Assembly (NCBI GenBank): GCA_041666325.1
Contig: JBAYHC010000001.1
Span: 59,338 to 123,337, forward strand
Source of the DNA: Patescibacteria group bacterium
GTDB taxonomy: Bacteria > Patescibacteriota > UBA1384 > XYA2-FULL-43-10 > 1-14-0-10-43-13
Length of the DNA stretch: 64,000 nt
Reading direction: 5' to 3'
The translations under genes were made by a program, and so were the position numbers. The notes below the pieces were generated by a model that saw only the letters and a program-made list of their open reading frames with translations, made no database searches and was not told where the DNA came from. This document shows, piece after piece, positions 11,249 to 18,436 of this stretch (position 1 is the first letter of the stretch; each line of letters starts with the position of its first letter).

Positions 11249-12025
11249 CTATCTTGTCTTCGGCAGTTTTTGTTGTTTCCCTGTTTGGATACTCTTGTTG
11301 CTCTCATCCGGAGAAGGGCTGATTTGGTTTGCTCGAACTACCAGTCTTCTGAGTGTAGTCCCGACTGGCGTACATGTCATGAGAGTAAGGATTGGCTTGT
11401 CGGTTGATTCCATGACTGATAGGTCACTTGGCTCAACGACTTTTATCTCTGAGACTTTGTAAATATAGTCCTTGTTTTGGTACCTGAGCTGGACGAGATC
11501 ACCAACGACTACCTTGTCCAAAAGAGCAAATATTGCCTTGTAGTCGCCCTTGTTCCAAGGCAGATCAGAACTGTGCCCTGTGACAAAGACATTGCCCTTC
11601 TCTCCGGGCATGGCCGTGCCATTGATGTGTATCAACCCATTTTGAAGGTTCTTCCTAACATCAGAATCATTGTTTTCTACCCGCCAGGTTACGGGCGCAT
11701 AAACATTAATCGAGGGAACGGCGAGATGATTATCAGAAATTTCCGGTACCGATATGGTAACTGGCTTGCCGGATTCAACTTTAACCGCTAGCTTTTGGAT
11801 CTCCTGTGCGTACGGCTCAACTTTGTACTCTGTCCGATACCAGTAAATAAGTTGACGGTATAGGTTTTGGTAGTTAATTGCAGCAAAGACCGTTATGTAG
11901 AGAAAGGTTAAAGAAAAAAAGACTCGCAAAAATCTCGTTCTTTTTGAAAGTCTTTTCTTCTTTTTTTCGACAAAGAGATCAAGAAGATCATCTTCTGTCA
12001 GGGTTTTTTTTGTTATTCGCCCCAT
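11249..12025 (-). CDS. sortase-family transpeptidase
   Basis: TLxTC active-site motif ILTLMTCTPVG, catalytic His region VFVTGHSS; ORF in track is over-extended through tRNA-Leu (artifact N-terminus MAELVDAHDSKS...); start set to MGRITKK at 12025. Confidence 0.7.
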   Translation of the reverse strand: MGRITKKTLTEDDLLDLFVEKKKKRLSKRTRFLRVFFSLTFLYITVFAAINYQNLYRQLIYWYRTEYKVEPYAQEIQKLAVKVESGKPVTISVPEISDNHLAVPSINVYAPVTWRVENNDSDVRKNLQNGLIHINGTAMPGEKGNVFVTGHSSDLPWNKGDYKAIFALLDKVVVGDLVQLRYQNKDYIYKVSEIKVVEPSDLSVMESTDKPILTLMTCTPVGTTLRRLVVRANQISPSPDESNKSIQTGKQQKLPKTR

Positions 12026-12064
12026 AGTTTTCTCGATACTAAAGCTCTTGCACCAAGTGAATTT

Positions 12065-12149
12065 GGTGCCGCGGGTGGGAATCGAACCCACACTCCTTTC
12101 GGAACACGATTTTGAGTCGTGCGCGTCTACCAATTCCGCCACCGCGGCA
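12065..12149 (-). tRNA. tRNA-Leu (anticodon CAA), type II with long variable arm
   Basis: Minus-strand read GCCGCGGTGGCGGAATTGGTAGACGCGCACGACTCAAAATCGTG...GGGTTCGATTCCCACCCGCGGCACCA; 7-bp acceptor stem, anticodon loop CTCAAAA, T-loop GTTCGATTC, encoded CCA. Confidence 0.85.
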
Positions 12150-13081: not shown

Positions 13082-14125
13082 ATGATCGACTCTCAATTTG
13101 AGAGCCTTATTGAGGAGCTAGACAGCGAACACATGATTGACCAGATCGAATCTTTTGGCGGTGACTGCGAGGCAGCATGGCGGAAGTTCTCAGATGTTAG
13201 TTTTTCCGATGAGTATTCTTCGTGCTCCAATATTGTCTTAACGGGTATGGGCGGGTCAGGTGCTGCCAACGAAATGATCAAGGAGATAGCTTTTTCTGCA
13301 GATGTCAGCATCGAGGTAATACATGACTACACCCTGCCTGGCTATGTTGACGAAAGATCACTCGTTATCGCTAGCTCTTATTCTGGTAACACAGAAGAAA
13401 CAATAGCCAGCGTCAAGTCGGCCCTGGAGCTTGGCTCAAAGATCATCATTATTACAACTGGCGGCAAACTAGCGGCAATCGCAAAAGAGCACAATCTTCC
13501 CTGCTTAATGTTTAGCTTCCACTCACAGCCCAGAATGTCCTTTTCTTATCTGCTTATCGCACTTCTGGCCACCTTCTCTCGCCTTGGCCTCTATGAGACA
13601 AAACAAGATCTTGCACAGGTATTTCTCGATCTGAGCCAAAAAACAATCGCATTTCACAGAGAAACGACGAAGGATAGAAATCCCGCCAAGCGATTAGCCG
13701 AGAAGATGTATCAAAAATTTCCCATTGTTTACTCCTCTCCCCTGCTTAAGTCTTGTGGTTTGCGCTTCAAAACTATGCTCAACGAAGACTCCGACAGTTT
13801 TGCCGCGTTCGACTACTACCCAGAGCTCGATCATAATAGCGTGGCAGGCTACACCAAGCCACAGATTCCAGTAATCGTCGTTCAACTCGAATCCATGTAT
13901 GATACGGAGAGAATCAAAACGCGGCAGAGAGTTACGCTCGAAATTATGAAGCAAAATAATATCGAGACTGAGAGAGTTTTCATTGAGGATGCCAATGATA
14001 GTTTGACAGAGAGACTGATTATGACTAACCTACTTGACGCTGCATCCTACTACCTAGCACTTCTGTATGGTGTTGACCCATCAAACACTCCAAATATTGC
14101 GTATATAAAATCCGAATTAACTTAA
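13082..14125 (+). CDS. bifunctional phosphoglucose/phosphomannose isomerase (SIS domain, archaeal-type)
   Basis: 347 aa, two SIS-like halves (LTGMGGSG...SYSGNTEET); adjacent to gpmI. Confidence 0.65.
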   Translation: MIDSQFESLIEELDSEHMIDQIESFGGDCEAAWRKFSDVSFSDEYSSCSNIVLTGMGGSGAANEMIKEIAFSADVSIEVIHDYTLPGYVDERSLVIASSYSGNTEETIASVKSALELGSKIIIITTGGKLAAIAKEHNLPCLMFSFHSQPRMSFSYLLIALLATFSRLGLYETKQDLAQVFLDLSQKTIAFHRETTKDRNPAKRLAEKMYQKFPIVYSSPLLKSCGLRFKTMLNEDSDSFAAFDYYPELDHNSVAGYTKPQIPVIVVQLESMYDTERIKTRQRVTLEIMKQNNIETERVFIEDANDSLTERLIMTNLLDAASYYLALLYGVDPSNTPNIAYIKSELT

Positions 14126-14140: not shown

Positions 14141-15730
14141 ATGATTCTGTCAAAAAAGAAACAACCATTCGTTTTGATAGTTCTCGATGGTTGGGGCATC
14201 GCTCCAGCATGGGGTGGTAATGCAATAGCACAGGCAGACACCCGTAATTTTGATCGTGCCTGGAATAGTTATCCTTCCACCATATTGCTTGCGTCAGGCG
14301 ATGCTGTCGGGCTGCCAACGAATTCGCCTGGCAACTCTGAGGCTGGCCATCTTAATCTTGGCGCCGGAAGAATTATCCACCAAGACCAAACTTTAATCGA
14401 CGAACAAATCGACAAGGGCAATTTTCAAAATAGCCCGGAAATTTTGGGTGCTATCTCGCATGCCCAAAAACACAATTCGTCGTTACACTTGGTTGGTCTT
14501 TTGTCAAAGACAGGAACACACAGCCATATCAAGCACTTATATGAACTACTCACTCTAATCCATACCAAAGGTTTCTCCCGTGTCTATATTCACCTTTTCT
14601 CTGATGGGAGGGACTCTGAACCAATGTCCGGCATGGAGATGGCCATGGAAGTTGAGAAGAAGATTAAGGAAATCGGGGTTGGTACAATAGCTTCTCTTTC
14701 TGGTCGGTTTTATGCTATGGACAGAGATAATCGTTGGGGGCGCATTGCAAGGGCTTACAATTTACTAACCAAGGGTGAGGGCCAGGTATTCGATTCAATT
14801 ATTTCTGCTTTTCGGGAGTCTTACGGCCGTGGTGTCACCGATGAGTTTGTTGAGCCGTGCCTCATCGCGAACAAGGAGCAGCAGAGATCAACGATCGGCG
14901 ATAATGATAGTATAATTATTTTTAATTTCAGAAGTGATAGAGTCCGGGAAATCACCAGAGCATTTCTGGAGGAAAAACTGCCTGAGTTCTCCGATCGACT
15001 CAAACTTTCCAATCTCTATATTGCTACATTCGTTGTTTACGACGACCACCTACTGTCCCACCAGGTATTCAAGCCCGAAAAGATTGATAATCCTATCGCA
15101 AAAGTCTGGTCTGATCAGAGTTTGCGCCAGTTTCATATCGCGGAGACGGAGAAGTATCCGCATGCAACTTACTTTATCAATGGAGGCGTAGAAAAGCCTT
15201 TCCCTGGTGAAGATCGATTGATGATACCATCTCCTCGAAACTTCCGGACTTACGATTACGTCCCTAAGATGAGCGCCGAGAAACTTAGTGCTATGTTGGT
15301 ACATGTTATCAAAAGCCGTTCCCACGATTTTATTATTGCCAATTTTGCAAATGCCGATATGGTTGGGCATACTGGCAATCTTCAGGCCACCGTGCAGGCC
15401 GTTGAGTTCGTTGACCGTTGCCTTGGAGATATCTTTGTCGAAACAGTTAAGGCAAATGGGGCCGTATTCATCGTCGGCGATCACGGAAACGCTGAGCAAA
15501 TGGTCAATCCAGTTACCGGCGAAGCAGATACAGAGCACACGACAAATCCCGTTCCGTTCGTGGTTGTCAGCGACATAGAGAAGATTAAAAATGCCAAGCT
15601 CTTAACAAACGGTGTGCTTGCCTCAGTTGCACCCACGATACTGGATCTAGCGTCGATCAAAGCCCCGGAGAGCATGGTTAACCCATCATTAGTTATCAGA
15701 GAGATTATAAAAAATGAACCCATCACCTAA
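14141..15730 (+). CDS. gpmI: 2,3-bisphosphoglycerate-independent phosphoglycerate mutase
   Basis: 529 aa; metal/catalytic motifs intact: LIVLDGWG, NSEAGHLNLGAG (catalytic Ser), SDGRDS, ADMVGHTGN, GDHGNAE. Confidence 0.9.
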   Translation: MILSKKKQPFVLIVLDGWGIAPAWGGNAIAQADTRNFDRAWNSYPSTILLASGDAVGLPTNSPGNSEAGHLNLGAGRIIHQDQTLIDEQIDKGNFQNSPEILGAISHAQKHNSSLHLVGLLSKTGTHSHIKHLYELLTLIHTKGFSRVYIHLFSDGRDSEPMSGMEMAMEVEKKIKEIGVGTIASLSGRFYAMDRDNRWGRIARAYNLLTKGEGQVFDSIISAFRESYGRGVTDEFVEPCLIANKEQQRSTIGDNDSIIIFNFRSDRVREITRAFLEEKLPEFSDRLKLSNLYIATFVVYDDHLLSHQVFKPEKIDNPIAKVWSDQSLRQFHIAETEKYPHATYFINGGVEKPFPGEDRLMIPSPRNFRTYDYVPKMSAEKLSAMLVHVIKSRSHDFIIANFANADMVGHTGNLQATVQAVEFVDRCLGDIFVETVKANGAVFIVGDHGNAEQMVNPVTGEADTEHTTNPVPFVVVSDIEKIKNAKLLTNGVLASVAPTILDLASIKAPESMVNPSLVIREIIKNEPIT

Positions 15731-17309
15731 AAACCAGCTGGCGCTATTATTAATAGAGGGCTTTGGCCTATCAACTTCCTCTATCGGAAATGCAATTTGG
15801 GCGGCAAATCCAAAAGCTTTTTTTGACCTGTGGAGAAGGTATCCTCACTTCGCGCTTCAAACACGGTCGGCCAAGGACAAAAAAACAAGTTCTTCTCACA
15901 CTTCTGAATCAAATTTTTCTACCCTGGCCAGTGGCACTATCACAGAAACAAATCAGGAATACATCAATCGCGTAATAAAAGATGGTTCAATTGATAAATC
16001 TGGTCACTTGGCCAAAAAGCTGGACCAGAATTCCGTGCACATGGCATCAGTTCATCTTGTCGGATCAATCTCAAAGGACGACTCACTAGGCTGCATCCGC
16101 CACCTGGAAGCAATTATCGACGAAATATCCAATAAGAATGTTCATAATGTATATATTCATTTAATTATTGACGAGACAATCGATACAAAATTTGATTTGC
16201 TTGATCTCGTTGAGAAAGTTGAGAAGCTGGCTGCCCGCTCTGCCAACATTCATATCGCTACTATCGGCGGGGCTGATTTTTTCCGAGAAACTGTCTCTGC
16301 CAAAATTGACAAACTGTCGACAGGGTTTAAATCCATCTACCGTGGGACAAATAATAGTGCCCTCTCGCTCTCTCAAGCGATATCACTGTATTTAAAATCG
16401 AATGAGAGACCTTCTGAGATGCAGCCAGTATCAATCTTGTCTAACGGCATGCTAAGCGGACGAATCGGCGACTTCGACTTAATTGTTTTCTTTAACCACA
16501 ATCTGGTTGGCCTAGAGAGATTGATGTTCTCGTTCGTTACAGACACAGGCATAAACAATCAGACAAGCCTGTCTCGATCTATCTCGGTTCTTTCTCTAAT
16601 TAGTCCAACGCATGGCAACGAGCGTATTATTTCAATCATAGACCGAAGCTATGAGACTAATCTTTTCTCAACGATCAGCTCTGCTGGCCTGTCTCAGATT
16701 GTGGCCTCTGACAGCAGCCGCATGCAACTTCTCCAGAGCTACTTTCCTTCCAACAAATCAGGAATAGAGGAAATGTACATTCCTGCCCCGCTTGCCTTTA
16801 ACCAATATCTATCCAAGTATCAACGTATTACAAACAAGGTTGCCGAAGGTGCTTTTTCTGCCCTCTCAAGAAAATCATGCGATTTTGCACTTTTGCATAT
16901 CCCCTGCCTTGATATAGTAGCTGAGTCCGGAAGCCTTAACGATGCTGTTGCGGCGGTAAAATACGTGGATAGGTTAATTGATCTATTCGTCAAATCTGCG
17001 TCCTCAATGGGCATAAGAGTGATTATCTCCGCAAGCATCGGCCGAGCAGAAAAGATGACGCGAACCGCAAACCAGAGAGCTTGTGTTGCAACCTCAAACC
17101 CAGTTCCATTTATCTATGTTCCGGACGAACAGGGCACAACCAAAAGAACGAAATTCCACCCATCGCACGAGATTATTACCGAACTGCTTCACCCTAAGCA
17201 TCACATTGCCGATATTGCTCCTACAATATTGAATATTCTTGGTCTCGAGACACCATCATATATGACAGGCAAGGCACTAACCGAATCTTTTGCCCGCGAT
17301 ATTGATTAA
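15714..17309 (+). CDS. iPGM-like paralog lacking catalytic/metal-binding residues (putative pseudoenzyme)
   Basis: 531 aa, collinear similarity to gpmI (LLLIEGFG, VYIHLIIDETID, VKYVDRLI) but SEAGH, DGRD, HTG and DHGN motifs replaced; start overlaps gpmI stop by 17 nt. Confidence 0.6.
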   Translation: MNPSPKNQLALLLIEGFGLSTSSIGNAIWAANPKAFFDLWRRYPHFALQTRSAKDKKTSSSHTSESNFSTLASGTITETNQEYINRVIKDGSIDKSGHLAKKLDQNSVHMASVHLVGSISKDDSLGCIRHLEAIIDEISNKNVHNVYIHLIIDETIDTKFDLLDLVEKVEKLAARSANIHIATIGGADFFRETVSAKIDKLSTGFKSIYRGTNNSALSLSQAISLYLKSNERPSEMQPVSILSNGMLSGRIGDFDLIVFFNHNLVGLERLMFSFVTDTGINNQTSLSRSISVLSLISPTHGNERIISIIDRSYETNLFSTISSAGLSQIVASDSSRMQLLQSYFPSNKSGIEEMYIPAPLAFNQYLSKYQRITNKVAEGAFSALSRKSCDFALLHIPCLDIVAESGSLNDAVAAVKYVDRLIDLFVKSASSMGIRVIISASIGRAEKMTRTANQRACVATSNPVPFIYVPDEQGTTKRTKFHPSHEIITELLHPKHHIADIAPTILNILGLETPSYMTGKALTESFARDID

Positions 17310-17414: not shown

Positions 17415-17675
17415 ATGAAACCCGAGATTTATATATTATCACTTGCAAATGGTCAATATTACATTGGCTCTACCCATGACGTCGAGCGCCGTCTAATCGA
17501 ACACAATTCCGGCAAGACCAAGAGTATCAGACATAAACTCCCCGCGAGACTCGTCTTTCGACAAGAAATTGCCACATTACCAGAAGCCCGAAAGACTGAA
17601 TATAAGTTAAAACAAAAGAAAAGCAAAAGGATCATCGAAACAATAATTACGAGCGGCAAAATTGAAATAAAATAG
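17415..17675 (+). CDS. GIY-YIG nuclease family protein (YhbQ/UPF0213-like)
   Basis: 86 aa; GIY-YIG core IYILSLANGQYYIGSTHDVERRLIEHNSG closely parallels E. coli YhbQ [28 protein letters not shown]. Confidence 0.75.
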   Translation: MKPEIYILSLANGQYYIGSTHDVERRLIEHNSGKTKSIRHKLPARLVFRQEIATLPEARKTEYKLKQKKSKRIIETIITSGKIEIK

Positions 17676-17680
17676 CTGGC

Positions 17681-17757
17681 GGGCCCATAGTTCAGTTGGC
17701 TAGAACGCATCGCTGGCAGCGATGAGGTCAGCGGTTCGAATCCGCTTGGGTCCACCA
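17681..17757 (+). tRNA. tRNA-Ala (anticodon GGC)
   Basis: GGGCCCATAGTTCAGTTGGCTAGAACGCATCGCTGGCAGCGATGAGGTCAGCGGTTCGAATCCGCTTGGGTCCACCA; G3:U70 AlaRS identity pair, anticodon loop CTGGCAG, encoded CCA. Confidence 0.85.
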
Positions 17758-17878: not shown

Positions 17879-18436
17879 ATGAAGTTATACGCTCTCTACA
17901 CAACAATCAGACTACTGAATGGTCAGGAGTGGCTAGAACGCTATATGAGCAAATACGGCCAGCCTTATGATTTGCACATCACCTTGAGGCAGCCATGTTT
18001 TATTGATGAAAAAGATGAGGATAAGCTCAAGTCCAAGGTCGACGCCTTGTTACGGGAGGGCAAAATCAAAAGAATGGTAACGGGCTTCACGAGGGTTGTT
18101 TTTGAAGAGCCAACAACCCAAAATGGCGGGTGTATTATGCTTAATGCCTCATCGTCAACCAGTCTATCAAAGTTACAAAAACACTTGGTGCTAGGCCTAA
18201 AAGAGTATGCAGAATATCAGTACCCGGAGAGGAAAACGTACGAAGATAACTTTATGCCGCATATTACCATAGGAGATAATCTTTCTCTTAAATTGTATAA
18301 AGAAGCAGTCGCGGAATTACCTAGTAAGATTGACGTAAAGGCCGAAATCAACAGTGTTGTCTTGATAGTAGTTGTTGACGATAGTGAGACCGAACGGAAA
18401 AATCCCAATAACATAACAACGTACAATCTGGTATAA
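17879..18436 (+). CDS. 2H phosphoesterase superfamily protein (LigT / 2'-5' RNA ligase / cyclic phosphodiesterase-like)
   Basis: 185 aa with two H-x-T-x motifs: HITLRQ and HITIGD at the expected spacing. Confidence 0.65.
   Translation: MKLYALYTTIRLLNGQEWLERYMSKYGQPYDLHITLRQPCFIDEKDEDKLKSKVDALLREGKIKRMVTGFTRVVFEEPTTQNGGCIMLNASSSTSLSKLQKHLVLGLKEYAEYQYPERKTYEDNFMPHITIGDNLSLKLYKEAVAELPSKIDVKAEINSVVLIVVVDDSETERKNPNNITTYNLV

Follow-up and report, generated by a model that had tools for sequence, protein, structure and literature searches.

Why would a bacterium with a very small genome keep what looks like a catalytically broken copy of a glycolytic enzyme directly behind the working one? The question is raised by a 64,000-nucleotide stretch of DNA from a Patescibacteria group bacterium (GenBank assembly GCA_041666325.1, contig JBAYHC010000001.1, positions 59,338 to 123,337, forward strand), hereafter the window. 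In it, gpmI (ORF1, or copy 1), the gene for 2,3-bisphosphoglycerate-independent phosphoglycerate mutase (iPGM), overlaps a second open reading frame (ORF2, or copy 2) that resembles it. An earlier interpretation made from the letters alone (the sequence-only reading) had proposed that ORF2 encodes a probable pseudoenzyme co-expressed with iPGM. Our analysis supports this proposal: the catalytic residues are lost, the fold is predicted to be kept, the pair is conserved and the sequence is under purifying selection. We put at about 0.9 the probability that ORF2 is a real iPGM paralog, kept by selection and catalytically dead, in a family that spans the Candidate Phyla Radiation (CPR) and always stands directly after the real enzyme.

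ORF1 is an iPGM and ORF2 is a full-length homolog

ORF1 is a bona fide iPGM. It scored 579.1 bits against TIGR01307 (curated cutoff, 330.65), matched the Geobacillus stearothermophilus enzyme (1EJJ) with an E-value of 2.6e-148 and has all 16 catalytic and substrate residues, which bears out the intact gpmI that had been placed beside ORF2. The 17-nt overlap of ORF2 with the gpmI stop was likewise found as described, both ORFs lying on the + strand (Table 1).

ORF2 had also been described as a collinear iPGM homolog, and alignments covering nearly its full length agree. Residues 6–523 are collinear with ORF1 by BLASTP (24% identity, E 4e-34), and phmmer aligned the protein collinearly with residues 3–508 of 1EJJ. 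Its TIGR01307 score, 142.2 bits, lies under the 330.65-bit equivalog cutoff. The Metalloenzyme domain (Pfam PF01676) was matched over residues 10–512 with 50.8 bits, above the gathering score of 24.3, a profile match that places ORF2, at the domain level, in the alkaline-phosphatase superfamily.

The sequence-only reading had left room for a frameshifted pseudogene with low coding potential. The codon-usage log-likelihood of ORF2 was +0.154 bits per codon in frame, compared with −0.35 and −0.38 in the other frames, and both its protein and its DNA are 100% identical in a second, independent assembly (Logan SRR6484324). Coding-like codon usage and an identical independent assembly rule out both a frameshifted pseudogene and an artefact of assembly.

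An AlphaFold2 model of ORF2, built on a 38-sequence family alignment, reached a mean pLDDT of 87.8 and a pTM of 0.88. When the model was compared to the PDB with Foldseek, the top matches were the iPGM structures 1EJJ and 1O98 (E ~1e-36, 1.3e-36 for 1EJJ; TM 0.73–0.76), while phosphopentomutases and other members of the alkaline-phosphatase superfamily came far behind. ORF2 is thus predicted with high confidence to be a well-folded, iPGM-shaped protein with two domains (phosphatase and phosphotransferase). We also considered a secreted or membrane-bound role and rejected it, since by eye the N-terminus of ORF2 lines up with that of the cytoplasmic iPGM and has no signal-like segment.

The metal centre and the substrate-binding residues of ORF2 are replaced

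To map the active site, 1EJJ residue numbers were checked directly in the alignments of ORF1 and ORF2 to 1EJJ. The roles of these residues in metal binding, nucleophilic attack and substrate binding are taken by us to be those of the published G. stearothermophilus iPGM structures; the Foldseek match list also contained 1O99, the S62A mutant of the enzyme in 1EJJ. Metal site 1 consists of Asp403, His407 and His462, and site 2 of Asp12, Asp444 and His445.

At the metal/nucleophile positions, ORF2 carries E15, D400, E404, S441, I442 and A459 (6/7), plus S64. A single ligand of the six in the two-metal centre is identical (D400) and no histidine is left. None of the eight substrate-binding residues is identical to iPGM. 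The motif replacements previously reported are all present, DGRD becoming IDETID, VGHTG becoming VAESG and DHGN becoming SIGR. With the metal centre and all substrate-holding residues lost, ORF2 cannot be a phosphoglycerate mutase.

One claim has to be withdrawn. The catalytic serine had been listed among the losses, whereas S64 of ORF2 aligns with Ser62 (1EJJ)/Ser66 in BLASTP, phmmer and three MAFFT alignments. Conservation of the catalytic residues would have spoken against a pseudoenzyme, but 6/7 metal/nucleophile and 8/8 substrate positions were counted as different. The match of S64 to Ser62 is probably coincidental, judging from the alignment columns: in almost all of the closest relatives examined the position is P, E, D, I, K or L, with Ser also in P0016 and L021. 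S64 lies in a Ser-rich loop, KKTSSSHTSESNFS, in which residues 51–60 have a pLDDT of ~62. Since the column is unconserved, the metal partners and His ligands are gone and confidence in the loop is reduced, S64 is unlikely to act as a nucleophile.

These observations bear on the idea that ORF2 is still an enzyme, with a remodelled site (E15, S64, D400, E404, S441) that binds one metal and acts on another phosphate or sulfate ester. At four to five of the seven site positions the side chain is still an O-donor, and the nucleophile position is occupied by a Ser. Catalytic promiscuity is a trait of the alkaline-phosphatase superfamily, and the metal centre is complete in some family members. However, all three His ligands are lost, the loop leading to S64 is poorly modelled, and the site residues of ORF2 are unconserved even in its nearest relatives: the second copy reads S, P, S, R, A, Y, P at the seven positions in L005 and D, P, D, R, N, Y, A in L003. 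As no polar constellation is shared across the family either (see below), we judge a remodelled enzyme to be highly improbable.

Degenerate copies form a divergent family

A word-indexed protein search with ORF2 or with the 38-sequence profile recovered nothing beyond ORF2 and four ordinary iPGMs. Such a search misses the relatives of ORF2 because the family is too divergent for a 5-mer index, and exhaustive HMMER was needed. Scanning 1.84 billion representatives (50% clustering) in this way gave 1750 matches, 61 of them below 1e-30. The best were 27–31% identical and scored 200–230 bits; genuine iPGMs scored well lower, at ~95–122 bits.

We then classified 155 aligned sequences, namely ORF1, the best 150 of the 1750 HMMER matches and the four earlier matches. 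Sequences with at most 3/7 metal/nucleophile residues and at most 2/8 substrate residues were called dead. This class holds 57 of the 155, including ORF2; 55, ORF1 among them, are intact or almost intact, and 43 are intermediate. Five intermediates (P0027, P0032, P0080, P0095 and P0114) keep all seven metal/nucleophile residues with no more than one substrate residue. These metal-only second copies may be neofunctionalised phosphatases or mutases acting on another substrate, as their residue pattern suggests. P0027 (L014:4001-5557) stands directly after an intact iPGM and before PTA-ACK-POR.

What do the dead members have in common? Columns at least 75% conserved among them belong mostly to the core shared with true iPGM (G18, N26, G74, H114, H149, G186, D255, D419 and P465). 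Conserved residues specific to the dead family are only S20, W40, L150, Q221 (89%), F254 and S440, and the columns of the 57 dead members revealed no new constellation of conserved polar or catalytic-looking residues. Conservation of a shared core without a new constellation fits a structural or binding role better than new chemistry. Pfam iPGM_N was matched by 38/38 family members tested, none of 38 dead-family members appears near the TIGR01307 cutoff (best E 1.9e-59), and stray weak sulfatase-type matches occurred in only one or two of the 38. The suggestion that ORF2 was repurposed for phosphonate or sulfatase-like chemistry thus found no support, given these few weak matches and the missing polar constellation.

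The second copy always follows the real enzyme

A survey of the tandem pair in related genomes had been proposed, and its outcome was positive in every related lineage examined. Starting from copy 2, we retrieved 14 lineages (L003–L015/16 and L017); eight GTDB loci were found through a single peptide pattern from a 9-sequence subset, and their number is a lower bound and not an estimate of prevalence. An iPGM lies directly upstream on the same strand in 14/14 lineages found with copy 2. Wherever this upstream gene is complete, it has 16/16 catalytic residues; in L003 the contig ends within it.

A search of metagenome contigs with copy 1 is a less biased test of the pairing. All four loci with an iPGM at least 56% identical to ORF1 have a degenerate copy downstream, which in L020 is truncated where the contig ends. 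Of the 76 more distant loci (at most 50% identity), only L031 and L036 have a tandem, and there the extra copies are catalytically intact. L031:909-4538 (Ga0194053_10005274) has three iPGM-like ORFs in a row, of which the last is truncated by the end of the contig and carries R153 to T, and L036:840-4081 (Ga0172364_10001767) has two; their other alignable catalytic residues are intact, and these iPGMs are 40–47% identical to ORF1.

Taken together, the second copy is adjacent to gpmI, co-oriented with it and kept immediately after it in 18/18 lineages, and what lies beyond the pair varies. Every source with a name belongs to Patescibacteria/CPR (Saccharibacteria-labelled metagenome-assembled genomes, Berkelbacteria, "Patescibacteria group" and ADurb.Bin400). 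The junctions are −17, −14, −8, −4, −1, 0, 0 and +6 to +26 nt in 12 loci including the window, and 0, +1, ~+139 nt (L019) and an overlap of 11–29 nt (L020) in the four loci from the copy-1 query. Invariant adjacency with tight or overlapping junctions argues for co-translation in similar amounts, and in the window the 17-nt overlap itself likely reflects translational coupling. We also considered a programmed frameshift joining ORF1 and ORF2 and rejected it, as in other lineages the two genes are separated by 0 to +26 nt or overlap differently.

The usual operon is PGI-iPGM-copy2(-PTA-ACK-POR). The phosphoglucose isomerase (PGI) gene usually lies 5' of the pair and was seen there in L004–L007, L011 and L013. 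In L004, L014, L015 and L017, the pair is followed directly by phosphotransacetylase (PTA), acetate kinase (ACK) and subunits of pyruvate:ferredoxin oxidoreductase (POR), or by ADP-forming acetyl-CoA synthetase (ACS) and POR.

The dead copy is probably old and is constrained

In a neighbour-joining tree, which on sequences this divergent is only indicative, the copy-1 sequences group as a single clade among the true iPGMs, and the dead copy-2 sequences group as a second clade. Both clades share sub-groupings (the window with L005; L006 with L007 and L008), and the pairwise identities of copy 1 and copy 2 correlate (r = 0.67). Matching sub-groupings and correlated identities fit one old duplication followed by co-inheritance of both copies.

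Mean pairwise identity is 55% for copy 1 and 28% for copy 2. The only other occurrence of ORF2 (SRR6484324) is identical at the DNA level, so selection was measured on the closest dead pair, L006 and L007. There, the proportions of nonsynonymous (pN) and synonymous (pS) differences were 0.27 and 0.79 for copy 2 and 0.15 and 0.77 for copy 1; synonymous change is saturated, and only pN<<pS can be stated. On these values, the dead copy changes at about twice the rate of the enzyme and yet is clearly constrained by purifying selection.

Could ORF2 still be a functionless duplicate, decaying and not yet deleted? Its lost catalytic residues, the evolutionary rate of about twice that of copy 1 and the weak ribosome-binding site before its start (GAGAG) would suit such a view. 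Family-wide conservation of the ORF has already largely refuted it: full-length ORFs persist in dozens of lineages at 20–30% identity, and pN is far below a saturated pS. The open frame of 531 codons with coding-like usage and the confident fold prediction point the same way, and a host contig of 687 kb, typical of streamlined CPR genomes, is unlikely to have held 1.6 kb of junk for so long. We therefore find simple decay scarcely credible.

In two Saccharibacteria-labelled genomes, the second copy (L009:1816-3414 and L010:3959-5557) has 15/16 catalytic residues, with R191K as the only change. It is 38–39% identical to ORF1 and 39–40% to its own upstream copy, with a dN/dS of 0.077. These are presumably two active iPGMs in tandem, to judge by their residues, and it is possible that such an intact tandem is the ancestral or an alternative state of the pair.

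Layout of the locus

Three co-oriented genes, PGI, ORF1 and ORF2, make up this locus on the + strand of the window (Table 1). A ribosome-binding site, GGAGGGG, lies immediately 5' of the gpmI ATG; the weaker GAGAG precedes that of ORF2.

Table 1. Features of the PGI-gpmI-ORF2 locus in window coordinates; iPGM residues are numbered as in 1EJJ.
Feature	Coordinates	Strand	Basis
Bacterial-type phosphoglucose isomerase (SIS + bact-PGI_C), first gene of the operon	13082-14125	+	Pfam PF10432 (118 bits), PF01380
gpmI (ORF1, copy 1), intact iPGM, 529 aa	14141-15730	+	TIGR01307, 1EJJ, catalytic residues
ORF2 (copy 2), catalytically degenerate iPGM paralog, 531 aa	15714-17309	+	BLASTP, HMM, AlphaFold2, codon usage
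gpmI/ORF2 overlap, 17 nt, ATGAACCCATCACCTAA	15714-15730	+	ORF2 ATG at 15714, ORF1 TAA ends at 15730
Asp12 (metal) to E15	15756-15758	+	Alignments; column E/D/S/N/G/P in relatives
Ser62 (nucleophile) at S64; degenerate phosphoserine loop TSESNF, T63-F68; His66 to F68	15900-15917	+	Alignments
Matched part of phosphotransferase (iPGM_N) domain, ORF2 residues 84-262	15963-16499	+	Pfam PF06415, 51.9 bits (cutoff 27)
Arg153 to T, Asp154 to I (substrate); IIDETID, I151-D157, for FSDGRDS	16164-16184	+	
Arg261 to N263, Arg264 to G266 (substrate); FFNHNLVG, F259-G266, for FNFRSDRV	16488-16511	+	
Asp403 (metal) kept as D400; His407 (metal) to E404; LDIVAESG, L399-G406, for ADMVGHTG	16908-16931	+	
Asp444 (metal) to S441; His445 (metal) to I442; ASIGR, A440-R444, for GDHGN	17031-17045	+	
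His462 (metal) to A459	17088-17090	+	Alignments
His123 (substrate) to L in ORF2			Alignments
Arg185 (substrate) to A in ORF2			Alignments
Arg191 (substrate) to T/V in ORF2			Alignments
Lys336 (substrate) to R336 in ORF2			Alignments

The operon stops after ORF2 in the window, and the compact lower-glycolysis/fermentation operon (PTA-ACK-POR or ACS-POR) is absent downstream of the pair. A GIY-YIG gene and a tRNA-Ala follow instead. The former is a stand-alone GIY-YIG domain ORF of 86 aa (17415-17675), ending 5 nt 5' of tRNA-Ala(GGC) at 17681-17757, after which comes an ORF of the 2'-5' RNA-ligase family (17879-18436). L017 also has a GIY-YIG gene, just upstream of its iPGM pair. On the − strand of the window, a mechanically called ORF (11249-12142) extends into tRNA-Leu(CAA) at 12064-12148, and its N-terminal "MAELVDAHDSKSCSERSVGSIPTRGTKF" is tRNA read as protein; the true start of this sortase lies further inside the ORF, and the public gene call is 294 aa.

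A possible partner of iPGM

How might a dead iPGM serve the cell? We propose that an old tandem duplication of gpmI inside Patescibacteria/CPR gave rise to ORF2, and that ORF2 and the active enzyme would be made together from one operon, here via the 17-nt stop/start overlap. ORF2 keeps the predicted two-domain iPGM fold without the two-metal centre or any residue that holds 3- or 2-phosphoglycerate. It would then bind iPGM and stabilise, regulate or scaffold the enzyme, as GlgD does with GlgC or HisZ with HisG. From the invariant adjacency, the tight or overlapping junctions, a fold kept without the chemistry and the precedent of such pairs, we infer a non-catalytic partner of the neighbouring iPGM, which associates with it physically and affects its activity, at a little below even odds. 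More tentatively still, iPGM in a broad set of CPR lineages may work as a heteromer, obligate or regulated, in which a catalytic subunit is joined by a dead one of iPGM fold, and the series from intact to metal-only to dead copies may record the birth of a pseudoenzyme.

Several considerations weigh against a partner role. Contact between copy 2 and iPGM is putative, and their adjacency might be no more than a leftover of the tandem duplication that has persisted for the convenience of the operon. To our knowledge, characterised bacterial iPGMs are monomers, and a heteromer would be unprecedented for the family. Most dead copies are only 20–31% identical, a drift faster than expected for a tightly co-evolving interface. 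Finally, second copies that kept the metal and lost the substrate residues may hint that copy 2 first took a different catalytic job.

This last point leads to the alternative that copy 2 was repurposed for a role unrelated to iPGM, for example to bind a ligand, to act as a sensor or to scaffold other enzymes of glycolysis or fermentation. Copy 2 would stand beside gpmI only since the duplication happened there and operon expression suits it. Purifying selection on a kept fold without catalytic residues would be expected here as well, intermediates with a metal centre but no phosphoglycerate contacts suggest a functional shift, and operons that elsewhere run into PTA-ACK-POR or ACS-POR make other partners possible. 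S20, W40, L150, Q221, F254 and S440, the few residues specific to the dead family, could be read as its signature, but they are mostly hydrophobic or small and form no evident binding motif. Moreover, the position after gpmI is invariant (18/18), whereas the downstream genes vary (GIY-YIG/tRNA here, PTA-ACK or ACS elsewhere). We regard an unrelated role as rather unlikely.

If the partner role is true, a heteromeric iPGM would be a quaternary architecture new for an otherwise monomeric enzyme. Streamlined CPR genomes of many lineages spend 1.6 kb on a dead glycolytic copy coupled to the live one, and its retention would imply an unrecognised layer of control or stabilisation in the minimal central metabolism of CPR. 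The family also offers a graded series for the origin of pseudoenzymes from tandem duplicates, with both copies intact, with metal kept and substrate lost, and with everything lost.

Comparison with known systems

ORF2 resembles iPGM/GpmI (TIGR01307; 1EJJ, 1O98) in length, collinearity, its iPGM_N and Metalloenzyme domains and its predicted fold, and the two share core residues (GNA, LHL, YIHL, D255, D419, NPxP and APTIL). Unlike iPGM, it scores 142 bits where 330.65 are required, both of its metal sites are dismantled and its phosphoglycerate-binding residues are all replaced. Because of these differences in score, metal sites and substrate residues, it cannot be filed as an iPGM enzyme (EC 5.4.2.12). 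Public labels for ORF2 disagree: "2,3-bisphosphoglycerate-independent phosphoglycerate mutase" at JGI and "hypothetical protein" in PGAP. The same holds for its relatives, P0006 (GenBank OQA03966.1) being named phosphoglycerate mutase as ORF2 is at JGI, and P0013 "hypothetical protein" in PGAP. The enzyme label on ORF2 and its relatives is almost certainly wrong. Because dozens of clusters at the 50% identity level hit both Pfam domains of iPGM, some pipelines (JGI, some GenBank records) call them iPGM, and metabolic reconstructions of CPR would count two iPGMs where one exists.

A survey of bacterial phosphoglycerate mutases (PGM) found iPGM paralogs to be rare and attributed them to lateral gene transfer, to a duplicate of recent origin (90% similar) or to a pseudogene with a stop codon; PGM paralogs occurred mainly in larger genomes (Foster et al., 2010; PMC2964296). 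Those cases and ours share a second iPGM-like gene in one genome. In contrast to them, the ORF2 paralog is ancient, dead, tandem and lineage-wide in very small genomes, and a paralog in tiny genomes is the opposite of the surveyed PGM pattern (PMC2964296). Our literature search turned up no relevant work on iPGM paralogs that are dead or inactive, or on pseudoenzymes in CPR.

In other metabolic enzymes, a dead paralog is an obligatory or regulatory subunit, as in the HisZ/HisG ATP-phosphoribosyltransferase and the trypanosomatid AdoMetDC-prozyme pair. Unlike ORF2, HisZ derives from HisRS, another enzyme than its partner HisG, and the trypanosomatid prozyme is eukaryotic and not operon-encoded; neither system belongs to the alkaline-phosphatase superfamily. 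A further parallel is ADP-glucose pyrophosphorylase, GlgC/GlgD, where glgD adjoins glgC in the same operon. In Firmicutes, the inactive GlgD forms a heterotetramer with GlgC and modulates it (PMC9093745). Like ORF2, GlgD is a retained, inactive duplicate of a catalytic gene. The differences are that its family is unrelated, that GlgC is oligomeric whereas iPGM is normally monomeric, and that complex formation and a kinetic effect have been demonstrated for GlgD while for ORF2 both are putative. Pairs of an enzyme and a pseudoenzyme paralog are thus known; what appears to be new here is their occurrence in the iPGM family, in central glycolysis, and across a lineage of ultra-small genomes with graded degeneration.

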